DNA of 43,098 nt from a virus (taxonomy: Duplodnaviria > Heunggongvirae > Uroviricota > Caudoviricetes): the IMG/VR virus record IMGVR_UViG_2541047775_000007; one strand, written 5' to 3'. Position numbers and translations under genes: made by a program. Positions within the stretch are counted from its first letter, which is position 1. Every line of letters starts with the position of its first letter. Of the stretch, positions 3,091-43,098 are shown piece by piece. Under the pieces are notes generated by a model. It was not told the origin of the DNA. It worked only from the letters and a program-made list of their open reading frames with translations, and made no database searches.

Positions 3091-3573
3091 CTATCTGGTC
3101 AGGGTGTCGTACTGTTTTTCACAGACTCTTCCGGCTTCGGCTGCCCGGTCAGCATACTCTGCCAGTTGTCTGTTTCTCTCGAGAGATTTACTGAGCACGT
3201 CGGCAAGCAAAACTCCGGTGTCTGCGGCTGACGTCCCAGCGCCGACAATGGCGTTATACTGCCTGAGCTGCTCACGGATGGCAACGAGCTGTTGCTGCAA
3301 CCGGCCAGCGCGAGCGGCAGCATCAAGAGCATCATTGCGCGCCTGGTCGATCCTCTGCTGCGCTTCACGTTCATTGATCGCTTTCTCCTGTTCGTAGTGC
3401 TGACGAATTCTCTCATCTTCGGTTTTGCGGTCTTCTTTCGCCTGCGCATACCCGGCGTCGTACTGACGACTGCCGTGTACACTCCAGGCAACAACTCCTG
3501 ATATGACCAGAACAGCAAGCACCGCCATGATAATCAACTGTTTCCGGTATGCTTTTACGAATGCCCAGATCAT
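3091..3573 (-). CDS. Rz-like i-spanin (160 aa)
   Basis: N-terminal TM helix, then charged coiled-coil; directly downstream of and overlapping the endolysin gene (ATGA overlap). Confidence 0.7.
3099..3335 (-). CDS. Rz1-like o-spanin lipoprotein embedded in the +1 frame of Rz
   Basis: Inside the 3099..3518 [16 protein letters not shown] gives a signal peptide with lipobox followed by a Pro-rich short mature peptide; fully embedded in Rz in a different frame. Confidence 0.5.
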   Translation of the reverse strand: MMLLMLPLALAGCSNSSLPSVSSSGSITPLSALGRQPQTPEFCLPTCSVNLSRETDNWQSMLTGQPKPEESVKNSTTP

Positions 3574-4199
3574 ACCGCCAGCACCTTACTGGCATTGATG
3601 TATCGCGCGCGCCGGTCGTCGATGCCGTTCCGGCCACCATTGATAATCAGAGTTACACGTGCAATATCGCCGGTATACTTCATGCATCCTTTGCTGGCAA
3701 AGAACCACGCCGCGCTACGAGCCGCGTATTCGTCCTGCGCCAGCAGTTCAGGACTCTCCAGCAGGTCAACCTTAAGACCGTTTCCACAGTCACGATAGTT
3801 ATTCAAACCGGTAACCTGGATAAGCCCGCGCCCACGGTAGTTCCAGCCATCACCAGGGGCATTGTTCCCCATGCGTTTGCTGTACACCAGATTGGCAATC
3901 GCTCTCTGGCGCTCAAGTGGCAATGGTGGTTCGCCTGCACGTCGCCCCAATGCGTTGGCCTGTCCCTGAGTGAGACGCCCAGCCCGAACAAAGTTAGCCA
4001 GTCCGCTGACGCTGTAGTTGAAATTCTCCTGCAACCGGGTGAAGCCTCCAGACTCATGCCCGACCTGAGCAATAAACATAGCCTGATCTTCTGGTTTGCT
4101 GATACCAAACTCTTTCATCGCAGAAGTTATATGCGAGAACCAGCGTGCGGCCAGTGCCTCGCTGATACCAGCAGCTCGCTGGAATTGTTTAATCTCCAT
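3570..4199 (-). CDS. endolysin, glycoside hydrolase family 19 (chitinase-like) type
   Basis: Motifs [20 protein letters not shown] are characteristic of GH19 phage endolysins; no N-terminal hydrophobic SAR segment. Confidence 0.88.
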
Positions 4200-4497
4200 G
4201 TTTAGACCTCGATACTTTGAAAATTTGAACGACGTTACCGCGCGTTTTAATAACCGCAGCTAGCATGACAGCGTTGATAATGACCTCAGATAAATCCACA
4301 GCCATTGGCGTACGTAACCAGATTGCATAGGCGACACGAACAGGAATACTGGCCGCAGCAACAATCAGGAAATAAGCAAGCCATCCTCCCCACCTTCGGT
4401 GTTGAGAGCCGTTACGCCGGAATGTGACAACGCGAATTGCTATGCCAGTGCAAATAACTGCATTGGTGATAAGCAAAAAAAACTCATGCGTTACCAT
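4189..4497 (-). CDS. holin-like membrane protein (3 predicted TM helices, charged C-terminus)
   Basis: Hydrophobic segments and C-terminal [19 protein letters not shown] tail; overlaps endolysin start. Confidence 0.5.
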
Positions 4498-4897
4498 CGT
4501 CTTTTCTCCCCGGAATTAACTCGCGTGGATTATCGGAACGGTGATAGAGCCATATACCAATACGCACAGCGACAATTGCTGACACGAATGCGCCTGCAGA
4601 GAAAACAATCCCTTTTTCAAAAGAGTCCTGCGTGATGGTAGGGATCAGGCTGGCTATGCCGATAAGAATTGATGCTGCTGGTTTGTAAAAGAGAAGGCCG
4701 CAAAGAAAGCTGAGCATCGACAGGAGCACCCGGCGACGGATGGGGTACTCTACTGCAGAGGTAACAAAAATTACCGCTCCAGCCAAAGCACCCAAAGCAA
4801 CCTCAGGAGGAACTCCTGCTATCACCGCCGCCAGAGAACTCATGCTAAGCCACTGATTTAAAGTTTCACTGGTTAGTTGAGCTGACATGTTTTCCAC
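4484..4897 (-). CDS. holin/antiholin-like membrane protein (3-4 TM helices)
   Basis: RBS ggtgga before ATG; multiple hydrophobic helices and charged C-terminal tail; sits upstream of the holin-like gene and endolysin. Confidence 0.5.
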   Translation of the reverse strand: MENMSAQLTSETLNQWLSMSSLAAVIAGVPPEVALGALAGAVIFVTSAVEYPIRRRVLLSMLSFLCGLLFYKPAASILIGIASLIPTITQDSFEKGIVFSAGAFVSAIVAVRIGIWLYHRSDNPRELIPGRKDDGNA

Positions 4898-5090
4898 CGT
4901 TTATATGCATAACAACCTCCTGAACAGTAAAGCATTACGCATAATAAACCATTTATGGTTTTTTGTTACTTTAACATCGTCAATTCCCTGTTTTTCATGC
5001 CGAGAATAAAGCTCACCTTTTACATGACTCTGAAGAAACAAACAGTGAAGAGCAGGTTGAATACCGCACCATTTAATGGCGCGGTAGCAG

Positions 5091-5387
5091 TCAAATAGAG
5101 AAATAAACACAAAAACAAAAAACAACAGGAACAGCAAAATCCAACAGACTTCCCACATCCCACACGCGTGGATCAAAACCTCCCCACCACGGCATGTTGA
5201 TACGTTTCCCTTTCCCAAACTTTTCTATCCAGCGATATTCTGCCTGGGTGTGTTCACGCGCAATGAAGAACGTACAACCGGCTATCGCACCGTAAGCCCA
5301 GTTTCCGGTAAAAATACCAACCAGTACCTGAGCCACAAAAGCGCAAAGCGAGTGAAGAAATGGAGTGACATCAATGCTCTTAATCAT
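5091..5387 (-). CDS. small membrane protein (98 aa), translationally coupled to the tailspike gene
   Basis: Start codon overlaps tailspike stop (ATGA); 2-3 hydrophobic segments. Confidence 0.5.
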   Translation of the reverse strand: MIKSIDVTPFLHSLCAFVAQVLVGIFTGNWAYGAIAGCTFFIAREHTQAEYRWIEKFGKGKRINMPWWGGFDPRVWDVGSLLDFAVPVVFCFCVYFSI

Positions 5388-7677: not shown

Positions 7678-7692
7678 TTACCTTTCAGGTAA
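7678..7692. promoter_or_regulatory. operator-like palindrome TTACCTTTCAGGTAA (motif A)
   Basis: Perfect 5-bp inverted repeat with 5-bp spacer; one member of a family of at least 13 near-identical sites. Confidence 0.6.
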
Positions 7693-8030: not shown

Positions 8031-8052
8031 AAAGGCCGCAAGAGCGGCCTAT
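8031..8052. terminator. bidirectional intrinsic terminator (aggccgc-aaga-gcggcct) between convergent genes
   Basis: 7-bp GC stem flanked by T/A-rich runs on both sides; nearly identical hairpin recurs at 11282-11299. Confidence 0.55.
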
Positions 8053-8777
8053 CGTTTCGCTTTGTGCTCGTCCCAGCACGTTTTGCACCATGCCATTAAG
8101 CCATCCGCATTTTGATTATTAGGGTAAAAGCTTGTTCGTTTTCTGCGGACATTACAAATTGGGCACCACTTCATATGGCGTGTATTCTTTGGGCCATCGA
8201 GACACCTTGCACACCACTTAGTCAATCCATCTGGATTTTTTGACGATTTCCTGAATTTTTCATATGGTAGGTTTATTCTGCATCGCAAGCACTGCTTGCT
8301 ACCACTTGAAACTCTGTTAGCTGATTCTTCTTTTGGCGGCGATACAGAAGGTATTCTTGCTGGCTCTGATACTGCCTGAGGTGCTTTTTTAGATGACTGA
8401 GACGATATGTCATCACCAGGGAATCTTCCATGATATGCCGGACGCATTGACACTCCAGGTGGAAGCTCAGCTGTAAACGGCTTTGGCTGAATCAGTTGCC
8501 TCTCTTTTGCTAACTCCTGCTGTTTATAATATGTCTGGATTACCGCACTATCATAAGCAGGAGGTGCGGAAATATTAGGCGCATTACCTCCAGTTTTTTG
8601 AAACTGAGTAGAGGTGTGTTCTATCACCTGTGTACGATTAATCGTTATCTCCCCATCTTCGGTCTTTATCGTTTTGTTATGATTAACGACCGTACGATCA
8701 GAGATCTTAGTCTTGTTCTGGTTGATAACGTAAATAATCACCGCAACCACACCAACAACTATCCAGAAAACTTCCAT
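8049..8777 (-). CDS. membrane-anchored protein with C-terminal tandem CxxC zinc-ribbon-like motifs (242 aa)
   Basis: RBS gaggaaaag before ATG; N-terminal TM helix; long low-complexity linker; C-terminus CLRC...NPDGLTKWCARC...WCPIC...NADGLMAWCKTC (duplicated DGL..WC..C unit). Confidence 0.7.
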   Translation of the reverse strand: MEVFWIVVGVVAVIIYVINQNKTKISDRTVVNHNKTIKTEDGEITINRTQVIEHTSTQFQKTGGNAPNISAPPAYDSAVIQTYYKQQELAKERQLIQPKPFTAELPPGVSMRPAYHGRFPGDDISSQSSKKAPQAVSEPARIPSVSPPKEESANRVSSGSKQCLRCRINLPYEKFRKSSKNPDGLTKWCARCLDGPKNTRHMKWCPICNVRRKRTSFYPNNQNADGLMAWCKTCWDEHKAKR

Positions 8778-8812: not shown

Positions 8813-8861
8813 TATCTTGCTTTCAGGTGATCAAGCGTTAAACGCAATCAACCAAATACGG

Positions 8862-8905
8862 TTGATTTTAATATTTCTTCGCGTTTATCATTACCTTTGC
8901 GGTAA
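8862..8905 (+). promoter_or_regulatory. candidate promoter (TTGATT -35) with overlapping operator TTACCTTTGCGGTAA (8891-8905)
   Basis: -35-like hexamer followed by a motif A palindrome; lies about 270 bp upstream of the antirepressor gene. Confidence 0.45.
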
Positions 8906-8942
8906 ATTTACATTGCACTCCTCTTGTGCCATAGTAATCGGG

Positions 8943-9018
8943 CACTGGCAAAATCCAGTGCCGGGATTGGTCTCCCGGATTACTAAGTGGCGCATACCAC
9001 GCCAGACGTGGTTTTTTT
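8943..9018 (+). promoter_or_regulatory. structured leader: three consecutive hairpins ending in an intrinsic terminator (ccacg-ccaga-cgtgg plus T7)
   Basis: Hairpins cactgg/ccagtg (8943-8960), ccggga/tcccgg (8961-8978), and terminator 8996-9018; no credible ORF. Confidence 0.45.
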
Positions 9019-9176
9019 ATGCGTATAGCACAGTCATGCCAGAATTATGGTGGGCTGAATGGGGGTCCGAAAGGACGCCGGTACCACTTAGGCCGGTAAG
9101 ACCAACTCCGTTCAGTTCACCACCATCTGATTGGTCTCAGCGGTGGTGATGTAATTCGCTAAGTGGAGACGCCATC

Positions 9177-9833
9177 ATGAACGCTCAACTCATCCCCGTA
9201 TTCAACGGCACTATATCTAACGAAACAGCCCTACTTTGTAATGCCCGCGATCTGCACACTTTTTTAGGTGTTAAAAAGGTGTTTGCAGCATGGATTACAA
9301 ATCGCATATCAGAATACGAATTCATTGAAAATCAAGACTATATTTTGCTTTCCAATTTGGGAAAGCAAACATCTGGTAGAGGCGGCCACAACCGCAAAGA
9401 GTACCACCTCACCCTTGATACAGCCAAAGAGCTGGCGATGGTCGAGCGTAACGAAAAAGGTCGCCAGGTGCGACGCTACTTCATTGAATGCGAGAAACGT
9501 TTAAGACAACAAGAAACAAAAGTGGAGAAGGTCTTGTCAGGCTTCATGCCCGCCATTATGGAGGCGATCAAGCTGGAAGACAAAAAAGAATACAGCGCCC
9601 CACTGAAGCCCGGCTACCGCAGCCTGATTCATTCTCCGTCTGGTGTTCTCGGACTGACGGAGAACTCACTGCTGATGAATCTGCTGAACCAGTTACAGGA
9701 AGACGGGCACGACGTATCGGGCGCGGCGGCGGAGCTGACCACCATGTTCTGCTACATCGTCGGTGTGAGCAAATGCCTGCGTGATATCCAGACGCACGCG
9801 GAGTACATCAACGACAAGGCAGGGTTCTTCTGA
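9177..9833 (+). CDS. phage antirepressor, AntA/AntB-type N-terminal domain plus C-terminal domain shared with the 7769..8026 protein (218 aa)
   Basis: N-terminus MNAQLIPVFNG...KVFAAWITNRISEYEFIENQDYIL...RYFIECEKRL resembles AntA/AntB antirepressor family; intrinsic terminator at 9843-9865 follows. Confidence 0.7.
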   Translation: MNAQLIPVFNGTISNETALLCNARDLHTFLGVKKVFAAWITNRISEYEFIENQDYILLSNLGKQTSGRGGHNRKEYHLTLDTAKELAMVERNEKGRQVRRYFIECEKRLRQQETKVEKVLSGFMPAIMEAIKLEDKKEYSAPLKPGYRSLIHSPSGVLGLTENSLLMNLLNQLQEDGHDVSGAAAELTTMFCYIVGVSKCLRDIQTHAEYINDKAGFF

Positions 9834-28206: not shown

Positions 28207-28283
28207 GTGGCATTAGCTCAGTTGGACAGAGCAACCGCCTTCTAAGCGGTTGGTCGCAGGTTCGAATCCTGCATGCCACGCCA
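28207..28283 (+). tRNA. tRNA-Arg (anticodon TCT), phage-encoded
   Basis: Manual cloverleaf: acceptor gtggcat/atgccac, D-arm gctc...gagc, anticodon stem accgc/gcggt with loop CTTCTAA, T-arm gcagg-ttcgaat-cctgc, discriminator G plus encoded CCA. Confidence 0.85.
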
Positions 28284-37093: not shown

Positions 37094-37156
37094 TCACCTA
37101 TAAGGTAACAAAAATCAAGGATAGTTACCCATGAGGTGCATTTACCTGTTGGGTAA
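37094..37156. promoter_or_regulatory. immunity-region operator cluster: TCACCTATAAGGTAA (37094-37108), TTACCCATGAGGTGC (37125-37139), TTACCTGTTGGGTAA (37142-37156)
   Basis: Three motif A sites between divergent Cro-like and repressor genes (OR1-3-like arrangement). Confidence 0.65.
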
Positions 37157-37211: not shown

Positions 37212-37796
37212 ATGAAAAGTATCCAGGACGTCCGCAGGCAAAATCTCAACGACTTGATCGACCGTGAATTCAATGGTGTTCAGACGCGGATGGCTGAAAA
37301 ACTTGGAACTCAGGCAAATCTGGTAAACCGCTGGGCTCTTGGCAAGAAGGTTATCGGCGACCAGGTTGCGCGAAAAATTGAAGCTGCCGCCAATAAACCC
37401 CGTAACTGGCTTGATATCGATCGCTCGCTTTCTCAGGAAGGTTTTCAGCCTGTCGGACCAAGCGACATTGGTCAACTGGCGGCTCACAACCTGAAACGCT
37501 GGATGAGCGAAAGCCGCGACCTTTCAACGCAGGGAAAACTTCACCGCGCATCCGGCGTCGCCCAGGTAACAATCAGTCGCCTGTTAAACAATGAGGTCAG
37601 CGTTTCCATTTCCACCCTGGAGAATGTTGCATCCGCATTCGGGCGTCACGGCTATGAATTACTGATTCACCCGCACGACCCTGCGACCATCAACTATGAC
37701 CGCTCGCGCTACGCATTGTTACCCGAAACCGAGAAAGCAAAGATCGAAAGTTACATTGAATTTGTCATCAACCAGAACGAAAAAAACAAACAATAA
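37212..37796 (+). CDS. phage repressor with two tandem HTH (XRE-type) domains and no recognisable LexA-like autocleavage domain (194 aa)
   Basis: Two segments matching the Q..LA...G.....VSR HTH pattern; no S24 peptidase motif seen by eye; divergent from Cro-like gene. Confidence 0.65.
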   Translation: MKSIQDVRRQNLNDLIDREFNGVQTRMAEKLGTQANLVNRWALGKKVIGDQVARKIEAAANKPRNWLDIDRSLSQEGFQPVGPSDIGQLAAHNLKRWMSESRDLSTQGKLHRASGVAQVTISRLLNNEVSVSISTLENVASAFGRHGYELLIHPHDPATINYDRSRYALLPETEKAKIESYIEFVINQNEKNKQ

Positions 37797-37816: not shown

Positions 37817-37841
37817 AAGCCGCCTTCTGGCGGCTTTTTTA
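37817..37841 (+). terminator. rho-independent terminator (aagccgcc-ttct-ggcggctt plus T6) after the repressor gene
   Basis: 8-bp GC stem and TTTTTT. Confidence 0.75.
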
Positions 37842-37853
37842 TTGCCTATTTGA

Positions 37854-37930
37854 TTACCTAACGGGTAATTTTTTTAACTCATATCTATTGACATCAAACC
37901 AGATACGCATAATTATTACCTCAACGGTAA
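37854..37930 (+). promoter_or_regulatory. PL-like promoter region: operator TTACCTAACGGGTAA (37854-37868), TTGACA (37888-37893), operator TTACCTCAACGGTAA (37916-37930)
   Basis: Consensus -35 flanked by two motif A palindromes upstream of the plus-strand early operon. Confidence 0.55.
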
Positions 37931-37949
37931 CAGACCGAGGTAACAAGTT

Positions 37950-38102
37950 ATGCAGTGGAAAATCATCAACGGTTGGTACTGCGTTACTGCATGCGGATTC
38001 ATGAGCTGGAAGTTCCGCACCTTACAGGAAGGCATTAAGTGGGCTTTCGTCAGCAAAGAAGCTCGCGATGTGGCCAACGATAACGAGATATGGGAGGGCT
38101 GA
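37950..38102 (+). CDS. small protein (50 aa), first gene of the plus-strand early operon
   Basis: RBS gaggt; below ORF-track size cut-off. Confidence 0.35.
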   Translation: MQWKIINGWYCVTACGFMSWKFRTLQEGIKWAFVSKEARDVANDNEIWEG

Positions 38103-38104
38103 TA

Positions 38105-38404
38105 ATGAACGTTAATCAGCAGAAAAATCTTCAAAAAATCATGCTGGCATTCGACAAGGACTACCGCCTGTCAGAACAGCTATATGACCGACAAGTTGAA
38201 CTGATTGAGAGTATCCGGCTTCATCAACTGGCATCAACTTTCGACGTTGTAACAGTTAAAGGCGTTCGCCAGGAAGTACTGGAGGCCGCTAAAGACAGTC
38301 CAGAGTTCGAAGAACTGATGGATTCCTACCGGCGCGAGGCAATGGCAATTATCGCCCGCTGGGATCTGGCTGATCAGCTTGATGGGCAGAGGGACGCGGC
38401 ATGA
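38105..38404 (+). CDS. hypothetical protein (99 aa)
   Basis: RBS ggaggg before ATG at 38105. Confidence 0.5.
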   Translation: MNVNQQKNLQKIMLAFDKDYRLSEQLYDRQVELIESIRLHQLASTFDVVTVKGVRQEVLEAAKDSPEFEELMDSYRREAMAIIARWDLADQLDGQRDAA

Positions 38405-38607
38405 AACCAACACTCCTCTCATTGCTGCGAGGTGGAAAACACAGCATCCGAGATATGGCAAAGATTCTTGGTATCTCAAGATCGAAGGTTTCTTGGTTCA
38501 TCGCTGAGCTTGAACGTCGCAAATGGGTAGAGGTAACCAGGAGCGCAATATATTTCCACGATGGAACCAGATCCAACAAGCAGAACGAATACAAGGTTAA
38601 GTTATGA
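38401..38607 (+). CDS. small winged-helix/HTH DNA-binding protein (68 aa)
   Basis: Segment SIRDMAKILGISRSKVSWFIAELERR resembles a winged HTH. Confidence 0.5.
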   Translation: MKPTLLSLLRGGKHSIRDMAKILGISRSKVSWFIAELERRKWVEVTRSAIYFHDGTRSNKQNEYKVKL

Positions 38608-39425
38608 ATACTGGCATCTATTTCGACATCAGCAATGAGGACTACCACGCCGGTGACGGCGTGAGTAAGTCGCAACTAGACATGGTTGCCAAGAATCCGG
38701 CGCTTCTTAAATGGGTTCAGGCAGCACCAGAAGACGAAGAGAAAAAGTCTGCACTGGATATGGGAACCGCATTGCACTGTCTGCTTCTGGAGCCTGGAGA
38801 GTTCGACAAACGCTTCATTGTTTCACCGAAATTCGATCGTCGGACAAAACAAGGTAAAGCTGACGAAGAAGCATTTCTTCGTGATGTGGCGGATATGGGT
38901 ATTACGGTACTTGATGTCGAGCAGTGGCGAAAACTGGAGCTGATGCGTGATAGCGCAATGGCTCACCCGGCTGCACGCTGGATGCTGGAAGCACCTGGTT
39001 ACTGCGAAGCATCAATGTACTGGAACGATGAAGAGACTGGTGAGTTGTGCCGCATTCGTCCAGACAAATGGCTGAACGAGCACAACGTGATCGTCGACGT
39101 GAAAAAGGTTGCAGATATGGATCGTTTTGCACGCCACATCGAGGAATTCCGCTACCACGTGCAGGACGCAATGTACCGCGAAGGAGCAATGAGGGTTACT
39201 GGTCAGTCGCATGGTTTTTTCTTTCTTGCCGTGAGCGAAAGCATTGATTGTGGTCGGTATCCGGTACGCGTGTTCGAGCTGGATGCGCCGGATGTCGATG
39301 CCGGGCACGCTCTGTTCCGCCGGGATCTGAATACCTATCACGAATGCCGCATCAACGATGAATGGGGCGGAGTGGAAATTATTAAACGCCCTGACTGGGC
39401 ACGTAAACAGGATATGTACGTATGA
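38604..39425 (+). CDS. PD-(D/E)xK exonuclease (RecE C-terminal-domain / exonuclease VIII-like), 273 aa
   Basis: Recognised family pattern; partnered with the downstream Bet-like annealing protein. Confidence 0.6.
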   Translation: MNTGIYFDISNEDYHAGDGVSKSQLDMVAKNPALLKWVQAAPEDEEKKSALDMGTALHCLLLEPGEFDKRFIVSPKFDRRTKQGKADEEAFLRDVADMGITVLDVEQWRKLELMRDSAMAHPAARWMLEAPGYCEASMYWNDEETGELCRIRPDKWLNEHNVIVDVKKVADMDRFARHIEEFRYHVQDAMYREGAMRVTGQSHGFFFLAVSESIDCGRYPVRVFELDAPDVDAGHALFRRDLNTYHECRINDEWGGVEIIKRPDWARKQDMYV

Positions 39426-40303
39426 GCAATGATATCGCAATCACATCACAACCAGGCGCAACTGTAGGCACTGCTGCGGCAATCTTCAGCCCCGAGGGCA
39501 TGAATCAACTGGTGCGTTTCGCGGAGTTGATGTCACAAAGCAAAGCGACTGTACCGAGACATCTTGAAGGCAAACCTGCCGATTGCCTGGCGGTGACCAT
39601 GCAGGCGGCACAGTGGGGAATGAACCCTTTCGCCGTGGCGCAGAAAACGCATGTGGTAAACGGAACGTTAGGCTACGAAGCACAGTTGGTAAACGCGGTC
39701 GTATCCTCTTCCAGCCTGCTGGCGACACGCCTGAATTATCGCTGGAGCGGTGACTGGTCGAATGTTAACGGCAAAACAGATAAATCACCGAATCTGACGG
39801 TAACTGTGTCAGCAGTTCTTAAAGGAGAAGCAGAACCCCGTGAGCTTACCATCAGTATGGCGCAAGCCGGAGTGCGTAACTCTCCATTGTGGGAACAGGA
39901 TCCGCGCCAGCAGCTTGCCTATCTTTGCACGAAACGATGGGCTCGCCTGCACGCTCCTGATGTACTTCTCGGTGTTTACACCCCTGACGAATTACAGGAA
40001 ACGGCACCGCGCGTTGAGCGAGACATTACTCCGCAAACGACTACTGCTGCGGGAATGAACAGTCTGATCAACGCTAAACCAGTGAAAAAGCCTGATGAGC
40101 AAACGCGTAAAGCGGATAGCCGTGATCCAGAAGAAATGCTGATGGCCTTTACCAGCGCAGCGATGAATTACAGCACTGTCTCCGAACTGGATAAGGCTTA
40201 CAAATACATTGCACAAAAACTTTCAGATGATGACGAACTGCTGGCAAAAGCCACCGACGTTTACAGCGTTCGTCGGGAAGAATTAAACGAAACATCTATG
40301 TAA
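39422..40303 (+). CDS. single-strand annealing recombinase, Bet/RecT-like (293 aa)
   Basis: Segment ...APRVERDITPQ... resembles lambda Bet ...ERQPERDITPV...; gene order exonuclease then annealase. Confidence 0.55.
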   Translation: MSNDIAITSQPGATVGTAAAIFSPEGMNQLVRFAELMSQSKATVPRHLEGKPADCLAVTMQAAQWGMNPFAVAQKTHVVNGTLGYEAQLVNAVVSSSSLLATRLNYRWSGDWSNVNGKTDKSPNLTVTVSAVLKGEAEPRELTISMAQAGVRNSPLWEQDPRQQLAYLCTKRWARLHAPDVLLGVYTPDELQETAPRVERDITPQTTTAAGMNSLINAKPVKKPDEQTRKADSRDPEEMLMAFTSAAMNYSTVSELDKAYKYIAQKLSDDDELLAKATDVYSVRREELNETSM

Positions 40304-40352
40304 CCACCACCGCGGCGCCACGCGCGCCGCACTGCAACCAAGAGAGGTATTT

Positions 40353-40601
40353 ATGAAAGGTGCATTAGGTAAGAAGGAACTCCTGGCGGTGGTGCCACTG
40401 TCATGGAGCACTATCGACCGTATGGAGCGCGCAGGGGAATTTCCTAAACGCTGGTATATCACTGACAAACGCTGCGCATGGAACCGTGACGAAGTTGAGC
40501 GTTGGCTTGATGAACGTCAGGCAGCAAGCCCGGCAGAGTTCCAGGGTAAAAAGCCTCCTGTTCAGCAACGTGTATATCGTCCTGTGAGCAACGCTGCATG
40601 A
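40353..40601 (+). CDS. AlpA-family excisionase/regulator-like protein (82 aa)
   Basis: Pattern LSWSTIDRMERAGEFPKRWYIT...WNRDEVERWL typical of AlpA-type HTH proteins. Confidence 0.6.
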   Translation: MKGALGKKELLAVVPLSWSTIDRMERAGEFPKRWYITDKRCAWNRDEVERWLDERQAASPAEFQGKKPPVQQRVYRPVSNAA

Positions 40602-40743
40602 GTGCGCTGCTAAGGCACTGGAGCAAATGGTCAGGATGGTACTTATTCCTGGCCTCTGTTTCAGCATGGCTTTATCTGCTGGCATTAATTTTCAGAGAGG
40701 GTTGGATTAAGTGAGAAAGTTAAGCCGACTTGAAAAATATCAC

Positions 40744-41010
40744 ATGAACAAGGTTTCAATGCGCCGTCCTTCAAAGGTTATCGCCGTTACTCCTGCGGCG
40801 ATAGAGTTCGAAAAACGCGCGATTGAAAGAGAGAAAAAAGGGCAGTTCCGCATTGCCGCCCACCTTTGGCTTCAGTGTATGGATGTTGCTTCTGGTGATG
40901 TTGAGCGTGCAAGGATCGCGGTTCGCAGGGACCAATGTATCACAAAAGGTAACGGCCTTCGCCGTGGCGACTATAGCGGCATAGGATGTTGCGGGGTGGT
41001 TTATGACTAA
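40744..41010 (+). CDS. hypothetical protein (about 88 aa; start uncertain, GTG at 40711 also possible)
   Basis: ORF overlapping methyltransferase start. Confidence 0.4.
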   Translation: MNKVSMRRPSKVIAVTPAAIEFEKRAIEREKKGQFRIAAHLWLQCMDVASGDVERARIAVRRDQCITKGNGLRRGDYSGIGCCGVVYD

Positions 41011-41653
41011 GAAATACACGCTAATCTATGCAGATCCACCATGGGTATACCGGGACAAAGCCGCAGATGGTAATCGCGGTGCCGGTTTTAAATATCCAGT
41101 TATGAGTGTGCTGGATATCTGCCGCCTTCCTGTGTGGGATTTGACCGCTGAAAACTGTCTGTTGGCCATGTGGTGGGTGCCAACACAACCACTCGAAGCA
41201 CTAAAAGTTGTTGAAGCCTGGGGATTTCGTCTGATGACCATGAAGGGCTTCACGTGGATAAAATGTGGTAGTCGACAACCAGATAAACTGGTTATGGGTA
41301 TGGGACACATGACTCGCGCCAATAGTGAAGATTGCCTGTTTGCAGTAAAGGGAAAACTACCTACGCGCATTAATGCAGGGATCGTTCAGTCATTTACCGC
41401 ACCGCGGCTTGAGCATTCAAGAAAACCAGATATTGTTCGTGAAAAACTTGTGCAATTGTTAGGCGATGTTTCTCGCATTGAACTATTCGCCCGCCAGACG
41501 TCTCATGGCTTCGATGTTTGGGGTAATCAGTGCGAAGACCCGGCAGTGCAACTACACCCTGGATACGCGTTGGATATTGCCGGATTAACAAATGCATTCA
41601 GCAATGCTCCGCTGTCACCAACAGACAACCAGGGGCGGGAGCGTGCAGCATGA
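41003..41653 (+). CDS. MT-A70 family DNA N6-adenine methyltransferase (216 aa), orphan
   Basis: Catalytic signature IYADPPW near N-terminus; no adjacent restriction endonuclease. Confidence 0.8.
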   Translation: MTKKYTLIYADPPWVYRDKAADGNRGAGFKYPVMSVLDICRLPVWDLTAENCLLAMWWVPTQPLEALKVVEAWGFRLMTMKGFTWIKCGSRQPDKLVMGMGHMTRANSEDCLFAVKGKLPTRINAGIVQSFTAPRLEHSRKPDIVREKLVQLLGDVSRIELFARQTSHGFDVWGNQCEDPAVQLHPGYALDIAGLTNAFSNAPLSPTDNQGRERAA

Positions 41654-41844
41654 ACAGGGCATCACCAGCAGATTTAAGGAAATGCCTTGAAACTGCAAAC
41701 ATGCTTGCACACAGCGGGATCAGGTTTGTTCCAATTCCCGCTGTCACTGATGCTGAATTTGCAACGCTGTCAGCAATATTCGCAGACAAAATTGAATCAC
41801 TGGCAGCAGAAGCCGAGATGGAAGAAAATCAGCAGAACTATTAA
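41650..41844 (+). CDS. small hypothetical protein (64 aa)
   Basis: ATG at 41650 overlapping methyltransferase stop. Confidence 0.4.
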   Translation: MNRASPADLRKCLETANMLAHSGIRFVPIPAVTDAEFATLSAIFADKIESLAAEAEMEENQQNY

Positions 41845-41850
41845 ACGTTA

Positions 41851-43098
41851 TTATCCCGCCATCCACTTCTCAAACTTCGACGGGGAGAACGGAATCAGAT
41901 CCGTATGCTCCCCGTCAATCCAGGAATCAATCATATCGGCCCACTGCTGCAACATGTAGGCGCGCTGTCTGGCGTATTCCGCTTTGTTATATACGGCGCG
42001 CACACCTTTCTGCTCATGTGCCAGAGCCTTTTCAATCCAGTCTGAAGGATAACCAGCCTCATGCAACAACGTACTTGCTGTACGGCGCATATCGTGTACG
42101 GTGAAGCCCTGAATATGCTCACCATCTTCATTTATTATTTTCACCGTTCTGTCGATCAGAGAGTTCAGCGCGGCATTAGATAATGGCTTCCGGAAATTGT
42201 AACGACCAGGAACCAGATATTCACTTCCACCAGCGCACATCTGCAACCCGACCAATATATCCTGAGCCTGTTTAGGCAGGTAAATAACGTGCGCCCGGCT
42301 TCCCTTCATGCGGTCTGAAGGAATTGTCCATGTCCATTTTTTAAAATCTATTTCATCCCACGTTGCGTTGGTGAATTCGCCTTTACGAACCATAGTGATA
42401 AGCACCAGCTTTAAAGCCATTTTCATAGTGCCCATAGCACCAATGGCATCCAGCGTGCGGAAGAACAGGCCAATTTCTTCTGGTGTCAGTGTTCGCTCTC
42501 GTGGTTTAAATATGGCGATAGACGAAGGTTTAATGTCAGCCGCAGGATTAAACAAACCATGACCACGGTCATTGGCGTGACGGTATACGCTGCTGATGAT
42601 CTCCCTGGCCTGTACTGCTGTTGCCCGACCACCGCGTTCGACAATCCGGTCACACAAATCACGAACCATCGATGTGGTAATTTCAGCCATCATTTTGTTG
42701 CCAAGAACCGGAAGTATGTCACGGTCGATCACCGCCTGCTTCATTGCGCGGGTACTGTCAGCCAGGATGACGTGTTTCATATAACTGTCGGTATGTACCG
42801 CAAACGTCTCAGCACCACGAATCTTTTTGATACCGTCACGTTTAGCCGCAGCCGGTGACTGGCCTGCTTTAAGCAGCTTCTTTGCAGCAATCAGTTCTTC
42901 CCGCGCTTCTGCCAGGCTGATACCGTCACGCCCATACTGCCCGATTACCAGTGTTTCGCGGCGACCGTTGATACGGTAGTCATAGCGAAACGAGACCGTG
43001 CCTGACGTAAGCACAGCTACATACAGCCCGTCACGATCGGAGACCTTGTACAGTTTGTCCTGCGGCTTGAGGTTTTTTAATTTTGTATCGGTAAGCAC
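41851..43098 (-). CDS. int: tyrosine integrase, P4-type (N-terminus at or 1-2 codons beyond window end)
   Basis: N-terminal LTDTKLKNLKP...LYVAV arm-binding pattern and C-terminal catalytic region with R...H..R...Y spacing typical of P4-like integrases. Confidence 0.85.
   Translation of the reverse strand: MLTDTKLKNLKPQDKLYKVSDRDGLYVAVLTSGTVSFRYDYRINGRRETLVIGQYGRDGISLAEAREELIAAKKLLKAGQSPAAAKRDGIKKIRGAETFAVHTDSYMKHVILADSTRAMKQAVIDRDILPVLGNKMMAEITTSMVRDLCDRIVERGGRATAVQAREIISSVYRHANDRGHGLFNPAADIKPSSIAIFKPRERTLTPEEIGLFFRTLDAIGAMGTMKMALKLVLITMVRKGEFTNATWDEIDFKKWTWTIPSDRMKGSRAHVIYLPKQAQDILVGLQMCAGGSEYLVPGRYNFRKPLSNAALNSLIDRTVKIINEDGEHIQGFTVHDMRRTASTLLHEAGYPSDWIEKALAHEQKGVRAVYNKAEYARQRAYMLQQWADMIDSWIDGEHTDLIPFSPSKFEKWMAG

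Follow-up and report, generated by a model that had tools for sequence, protein, structure and literature searches.

Which nucleic acid does an adenine methyltransferase act on when it lies in the early operon of a temperate phage that has no restriction endonuclease to go with it? This question is raised by positions 38,604 to 41,844 of the IMG/VR virus record IMGVR_UViG_2541047775_000007, the 43,098 nucleotides of which are, as a whole, referred to here as the window. A previous sequence-only reading described this region as a plus-strand early operon with an exonuclease, a Bet-like annealing protein and an orphan MT-A70 methyltransferase of unknown target next to an integrase, and all of the open reading frames (ORFs) that it named are indeed present where it placed them.

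The explanation that we favor is that an early operon, repressed in the lysogen, brings together a RecET-type recombination pair and a Dam-like methyltransferase directed to GATC, and taken as a whole we consider it reasonably probable. Its parts are not equally firm. The identities of the genes and the phage context seem nearly beyond doubt, and the GATC target taken by itself is a tentative assignment, which we would place at best somewhat short of an even chance. The features on which the argument is built are as follows.

37212..37796, plus strand: cI-like repressor gene with two helix-turn-helix (HTH) regions (Pfam HTH_3 at amino acids 106-147, YdaS/HTH at amino acids 21-61; PHROG transcriptional regulator/repressor; homolog of phiV10 p40)
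37817..37846, plus strand: intrinsic terminator-like hairpin (37817-37836) and T-run after the repressor gene (8-bp stem with 6 GC pairs, then TTTTTATT)
37854..37930, plus strand: segment with a PL-like promoter, TTGACA-17-AATTAT, at 37888-37916 (10/12 consensus matches in the promoter scan)
38604..39425, plus strand: RecE-type 5'-3' double-stranded DNA exonuclease, short form, 273 amino acids (Pfam DUF3799, PDDEXK-like, E=9.6e-22)
39422..40303, plus strand: RecT/Redβ-family single-strand annealing protein, 293 amino acids (PF03837, E=1.7e-31; phrog_561, E=4e-145)
41003..41653, plus strand: MT-A70 (class β) N6-adenine methyltransferase, 216 amino acids (Pfam PF05063, E=3.9e-22)

An early operon of a common E. 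coli prophage

The window is a phiV10/ε15-like (Uetakevirus) temperate podovirus prophage located beside guaA in E. coli. Its early region is 95-98% identical at the DNA level to Escherichia phages phiV10, TL-2011b, phiv142-3 and their relatives, and in E. coli E47 the same prophage lies between guaA and yfgI, with guaA directly beyond the integrase. Bases 1 to about 2960 of the window are host flank, the match to phage records starting at 2964, and the prophage appears complete. The gene order from the repressor through the convergent P4-type integrase is shared with phiV10 (genes p39-p32), TL-2011b, phiv142-3 and ε15, all members of Uetakevirus, except that phiV10 is without a 68-amino-acid MarR-like ORF that the window carries.

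This region is well sampled. Of 5426 complete E. coli genomes, 568 match the 3.9-kb stretch and 421 of these cover at least 80% of it, so that about a tenth of such genomes carry the Uetakevirus MT-A70 enzyme. The ORFs are real genes rather than chance reading frames, as records of phages (17) and of E. coli genomes (523) have the region at 95-99% identity. The exact nuclease, annealase and methyltransferase proteins are already deposited at NCBI (under names such as "RecT family recombinase" and "MT-A70 family methyltransferase"), each sequence being found on 168-254 contigs. The feature is therefore an ordinary one, the already annotated early operon of a common E. coli prophage. As a textbook lambdoid-style module in a described genus, annotated in hundreds of genomes, it has in itself little discovery value.

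The description of this region as a plus-strand early operon agrees with what lies upstream of it and with the overlapping arrangement of its genes. The cI-like repressor gene is followed by the terminator-like hairpin (the phiV10 record has a putative terminator annotated at the equivalent place) and then by the promoter-like site, which has a perfect 15-bp TTACC-N5-GGTAA palindrome, read directly, on either side (37854-37868 and 37916-37930). Between about 37950 and 41844 neighboring ORFs either overlap or directly adjoin one another, with a single 49-base gap 3' of the annealase gene, and downstream of 37916 the promoter scan gave no other promoter-like site on the plus strand.

The palindrome is not confined to this promoter. 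Two more copies, at 37094 and 37142, lie in the divergent promoter region, and when up to one mismatch is allowed there are 14 sites in the window against 0.69 expected, each of 15 bp, beginning at 7678, 8798, 8891, 9907, 27870, 31012, 31030, 34749, 34811, 36757, 37094, 37142, 37854 and 37916. Four of them are at immunity-region promoters and most of the others fall within or close to intergenic regions or gene starts, including the ant/immI region, the region upstream of terS and the intergenic region between P and DUF1064. The sites are kept at equivalent positions in phiV10 and also in E. coli E47. The two-HTH repressor may use TTACC-N5-GGTAA genome-wide as its operator.

As the cI-like gene, the terminator and the palindrome-flanked promoter all lie upstream of the operon, we propose that it is repressed in the lysogen, and judging from this layout it is probably a leftward-type (λ-PL-like), repressor-controlled early operon that is silent in that state. 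In the lysogen, the repressor would occupy the predicted operators around 37888-37916 and keep the operon off. Upon induction or infection, a single transcript spanning about 37930 to 41844 would carry nine or ten translationally coupled ORFs.

The orphan methyltransferase and its substrate

That the operon encodes an MT-A70 protein with a DPPW motif, as the sequence-only reading had it, is borne out by a match to PF05063 that spans all 172 profile positions (79.4 bits; gathering threshold, 23.9). DPPW is found at residues 11-14, N-terminal of the S-adenosylmethionine (SAM)-binding motif, that is, in the permuted order of the β class, and E160-L-F-A-R164 and W173-G-N-Q176 align with MTA1 and METTL3. 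PADLOC assigns the protein to MTase_II (E=1.6e-78). Across eight phage homologs D11, P12, W14, E160-L-F-x-R164 and W173-G-N175 are invariant, and because the catalytic and SAM-binding motifs are thus preserved the enzyme looks active; by its sequence, it is an intact class β N6-adenine methyltransferase. The closest solved structures found by sequence are those of ciliate (Tetrahymena) MTA1 (E=5.8e-13) and human METTL3 (E=3e-5). Both share the DPPW and C-terminal SAM-binding motifs with the phage enzyme, but they are obligate heteromers, with MTA9/p1/p2 and METTL14, respectively, whereas the phage protein is a bare 216-residue domain.

The "orphan" status of the enzyme stands. No restriction endonuclease is adjacent to it (the neighbors are PerC-family and DUF1382 genes) or annotated in the E47 prophage, and Pfam, PADLOC and PHROGs, whose profiles could miss divergent nucleases, found none among the window-specific ORFs.

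The statement that the target specificity is unknown is outdated, as there is published work on an enzyme that is 83% identical (PMC10810198) and a GATC assignment for M.EcoGV (PMC6602927). Residues 1-187 of the methyltransferase are 83-84% identical by tblastn to the MT-A70 gene found in over 100 phages carrying Shiga toxin (Stx) 2a. Over the same residues it is 83% identical (E=1e-124) to φPA8 gp5, known as M.EcoPA8orf6770P, with which it shares the MT-A70 fold, DPPW, the ELFAR...WGNQ motifs and a location near the integrase end of the prophage. In both phages a DUF1382 gene follows immediately downstream. They differ in the gene upstream, which encodes PNB-2 in φPA8 and a PerC-family protein in the window, and the window phage is a podovirus of another genus. 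The C-terminal tail (residues 188-216) is unrelated to that of φPA8 and recurs in Enterobacter phage Tyrion, whose enzyme is 81% identical to that of the window; in ε15 the tail is shorter, and there is no DUF1382 match downstream. A variable loop, W85-G101, is of the φPA8 type in the window, whereas ε15 and Tyrion have a different type of loop.

As for DNA specificity, M.EcoGV of E. coli O104:H4, highly similar to M.EcoPA8orf6770P, methylates GATC in vivo when overproduced, according to the passage of PMC10810198 that cites Fang 2012 and REBASE, and it is entered with GATC specificity in Table 3 of PMC6602927. The likeliest job of the window enzyme would be Dam-like N6-methyladenine (m6A) formation at GATC on replicating phage DNA; GATC is preferred because PNB-2, the partner that directs the φPA8 enzyme to RNA, is missing here. 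The φPA8-type loop points the same way, and the lack of GATC avoidance is in keeping with it. Beyond this, the frequency of GATC gave no clue to specificity, since it is unremarkable: the prophage has 148 sites, neither avoided nor enriched (observed/expected 0.76-0.95), with zero in the operator regions.

Several points weigh against this explanation. Purified M.EcoPA8orf6770P alone showed no significant methylation of GATC or other DNA in vitro, whereas the holoenzyme that it forms with PNB-2 has 16S rRNA in 30S subunits as its preferred substrate and increases spontaneous induction (Gong, Chakraborty, Koudelka, PMC10810198), so that DNA, or GATC, as the native target of the M.EcoGV/M.EcoPA8orf6770P subfamily is contested. 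The GATC evidence for M.EcoGV comes from plasmid overproduction and, in the part of the literature used here, is cited second-hand. A divergence of 17% together with a different C-terminal tail could also mean a shift in specificity. Moreover, GATC methylation is largely redundant in dam+ hosts, which makes its selective benefit less obvious. Finally, on the side of regulation, the promoter, operator and terminator calls are all consensus matches.

The first of these points underlies an alternative in which the enzyme is chiefly a 16S rRNA m6A methyltransferase, tunes prophage induction and needs a small partner, which could be one of three neighbors in the operon.

38401..38607, plus strand: MarR-like winged-HTH protein, 68 amino acids (Pfam MarR_2/HTH_24, E~5e-6; MarR family in the E47 annotation)
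40711..41010, plus strand: PerC-family transcriptional activator (Pfam PerC, E=5.6e-7; phrog_868, E=4.8e-61; GTG start at 40711, in RefSeq ATG at 40759)
41650..41844, plus strand: DUF1382 protein, last gene of the operon (Pfam DUF1382, E=5e-30)

We regard this as quite unlikely, although it is not without appeal. The 83%-identical φPA8 enzyme is nearly inactive alone and becomes a 16S rRNA enzyme in a 1:1 complex with PNB-2, the product of an overlapping upstream gene (PMC10810198). The PerC gene likewise overlaps the methyltransferase start, by 8 bases, which parallels the gp6/gp5 overlap in φPA8, and in Tyrion a small winged-HTH gene directly precedes the methyltransferase gene, the product of which is 81% identical and ends in the tail found in the window enzyme. 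Eukaryotic MT-A70 enzymes, too, act as heteromers (PMC7544214). On the other hand, no homolog of PNB-2 or PNB-1 was found in the whole window (best tblastn E=8.3 and 3.0, respectively), the PerC-family protein gives no alignment with PNB-2, and the φPA8 tail, which its authors suggest is possibly needed for PNB-2 binding (PMC10810198), is replaced in the window enzyme.

Neither PerC nor DUF1382 holds up as a conserved partner. What lies upstream of the methyltransferase homologs differs from phage to phage: the window and phiV10 have PerC there, ε15 has a 35-residue ORF and Tyrion the small winged-HTH gene, and in a Hafnia, a Klebsiella and a Pasteurella phage the position is taken by DUF4060, DUF1317 and replication protein P, respectively. 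PerC was rejected on these grounds. The MarR-like protein of the window, Tyrion gp30 and PNB-2 have no detectable mutual similarity, and the idea that they form one winged-HTH family was dropped. No DUF1382 gene follows the methyltransferase in ε15, the Hafnia phage or Tyrion. The adjacency of DUF1382 to the methyltransferase here is best explained as inherited synteny, because λ has orf63 after exo (exo-orf60a-orf63), a DUF1382 gene, without any methyltransferase; the window protein is 50% identical to λ orf63 and 49% identical to the product of the gene downstream of the φPA8 methyltransferase. A more specific form of the idea, in which the enzyme methylates RNA (rRNA) with a different small operon partner, the swapped tail serves as the docking element and induction is modulated in this way, seems to us more improbable still.

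Coming back to DNA as the substrate, the enzyme might instead have a non-GATC or relaxed specificity and give broad anti-restriction protection to phage DNA, a role that the sequence-only reading had conjectured. An orphan gene in an early operon would suit counter-restriction, the protein barely exceeds the 172-position catalytic domain and has no separate target-recognition domain, and the W85-G101 loop varies among homologs; besides, non-specific class β enzymes of prophages do exist, for example M.EcoGII (PMC7544214). Yet the nearest enzymes with a reported DNA specificity are listed as GATC, and the loop in the window enzyme is of the Stx-phage type. M.EcoGII and other non-specific prophage enzymes were weighed by their descriptions, nothing being found that ties M.EcoGII to the MT-A70 Pfam family, and the window protein is far nearer to the M.EcoGV/φPA8 type. 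We think a non-GATC or relaxed specificity unlikely. M.EcoGIX, plasmid-borne on pESBL and single-strand specific, was set aside, also by description.

Finally, the gene might be a decaying or functionless passenger in a cryptic prophage, as many prophage methyltransferases are silent in lysogen methylomes (PMC6602927, PMC7544214). This we find highly improbable. The ORF is full-length with its catalytic and SAM-binding motifs invariant, its 90%-identity cluster has 2905 members with the exact sequence on 254 contigs, and the gene is kept in the viable phages phiV10 (97% identical), TL-2011b and Tyrion, in addition to the apparent completeness of the prophage.

A comparison of the methylomes of a lysogen and a cured strain, which had been proposed as the test, would be the wrong experiment for such genes. 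It would be indecisive because the lysogen probably keeps the operon repressed, because a GATC enzyme yields no new motif in a dam+ host, and because an RNA-directed enzyme leaves DNA unmarked. To take the lack of an additional motif as refutation would therefore mean rejecting a functional enzyme wrongly. Of some modest use is that the DNA-versus-rRNA question posed by the Stx-phage MT-A70 enzyme extends to a far more widespread non-Stx prophage family without PNB-2, a family that provides a natural experiment on whether the enzyme works on DNA by itself or with another partner.

The RecE-type nuclease and the RecT/Redβ-family annealase

The exonuclease/Bet-like pair of the sequence-only reading is supported, with two refinements. 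The operon does encode a PD-(D/E)xK nuclease and a RecT/Redβ annealase; the nuclease is of the RecE type, and "Bet-like" is fair for the annealase at the family level alone.

With residues 595-862 of Rac RecE the nuclease shares 48% identity, and it matches the RecE catalytic-domain structure (PDB 3H4R, RecE 606-866) with E=2.6e-77. Its H58, D154, D165 and K167 align to RecE positions 652, 748, 759 and 761, which we take to be the RecE catalytic residues. Against the NCBIfam equivalog for full-length ExoVIII it scores 306 bits, the cut-off being 1269, with only model positions 606-873 matched. Pfam finds DUF3799 in it and no N-terminal Exonuc_VIII domain (PF06630), which Rac RecE has. By these comparisons, the nuclease is a natural short form of RecE, consisting of the catalytic domain only and without the N-terminal part of about 590 residues present in Rac RecE. 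A λ Exo/YqaJ-type nuclease, which is unrelated to it, was considered and rejected by sequence and profile comparison.

The annealase scores 109.8 bits against PF03837 (cut-off 24), similar to the 115.6 bits of λ Bet. Rac RecT and λ Bet belong to the same Pfam family, yet both are remote from it in pairwise comparison (λ Bet, E=0.001 over 71 amino acids; Rac RecT, BLASTP E=0.68), and a sequence search found no solved structure matching it.

The annealase start overlaps the nuclease stop by 4 bases (ATGA). A partnership of the two proteins is suggested by this overlap and by an in-frame fusion in the phiV10 record. Rac RecE/RecT and λ Exo/Bet are likewise two-gene exonuclease-annealase modules with overlapping genes in an early operon. 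The short nuclease would resect the ends of double-stranded DNA in the 5'-3' direction, the annealase would anneal the exposed single strand, and together they would act as a two-component RecET-type recombinase in phage recombination and replication. For this pair homology is established, and the activity is what we infer from it. No homolog of Gam was seen in the operon.

Two observations concern variation in this pair. In the phiV10 record (3402-5162) the RecE-like and RecT-like parts form a single in-frame fusion of 586 amino acids (…RKTGYVHMSNDIA…), whereas the window and RefSeq E. coli genomes have them as separate ORFs with the ATGA overlap; the fusion is either a natural one or a one-base sequencing difference. 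The annealase, 74% identical to that of phiV10 overall, is also a mosaic, its C-terminal approximately 100 residues being identical and its N-terminal and central parts much more divergent, with a 20-residue indel and only about 74% identity in the N-terminal half. This pattern suggests recombination within the annealase gene.

Remaining operon genes and other elements of the window

Between them, the PerC-family, DUF1382, AlpA-like and 38-residue peptide genes make four that lie within the same coordinates and had not been named in the sequence-only reading. The remaining genes of the operon, and the integrase that faces it, are given below.

37950..38102, plus strand: small ORF of 50 amino acids, first gene of the operon (from the ORF list; homolog of ε15 p37 and phiV10 p39; annotated in phiV10 and E47)
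38090..38404, plus strand: conserved hypothetical protein, phrog_856 (PHROG E=7.4e-55; start annotated in relatives at about 38105)
40353..40601, plus strand: AlpA-family excisionase/transcriptional regulator (Pfam Phage_AlpA, E=3.1e-5; phrog_66, "excisionase and transcriptional regulator", E=2e-16)
40598..40714, plus strand: hydrophobic peptide of 38 amino acids (from its translation; homolog of ε15 gp32 and phiV10 p35, annotated as a membrane protein in both)
41851..43098, minus strand: P4-type tyrosine integrase (Pfam Arm-DNA-bind_3, Phage_int_M and Phage_integrase; the window stops at its start codon)

The gene of the 38-residue peptide has a 4-base overlap with each neighbor. Going by their families, the AlpA-like protein is likely to be an excisionase or directionality factor for the convergent integrase, and PerC would be a small activator. 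The integrase does adjoin the operon, as had been noted, in the convergent orientation. The stop codons of the last operon gene and the integrase gene are 6 bases apart (41844-41851), and the scan found no terminator-like site between them; in this arrangement early transcription would run antisense into int.

Far from the operon, Rfam matches to IsrK (8942-9018, plus strand, 67.7 bits) and the C4 antisense RNA (9043-9127, plus strand, 61.2 bits) immediately precede an AntA/AntB antirepressor gene (9177-9833). This IsrK/C4/ant region resembles a P1/P7-type immI (c4-ant) module in a podovirus prophage. Because of the IsrK and C4 matches, the mechanically called ORF at 8817-9149 is probably RNA rather than a protein gene.

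The ant region is variable and absent from E47, and at 8049-8777 (minus strand) it encodes a protein of 242 amino acids (phrog_6762). Zinc-ribbon-like segments in its C-terminal part weakly match endonuclease VII and Lar-like restriction-alleviation families. It was the sole candidate for a hidden restriction endonuclease, and was put aside in view of these weak matches and a distance of about 32 kb from the methyltransferase.

An STnc490 Hfq-binding small RNA (Rfam, 146 bits) is found at 2778-2901 on the minus strand, approximately at the junction of host and prophage on the side away from the integrase. A tRNA-Arg (anticodon TCT) lies at 28207-28283 on the plus strand, where the portal and terminase genes leave a gap and on the strand opposite to the late genes, and is present in the E47 prophage as well.

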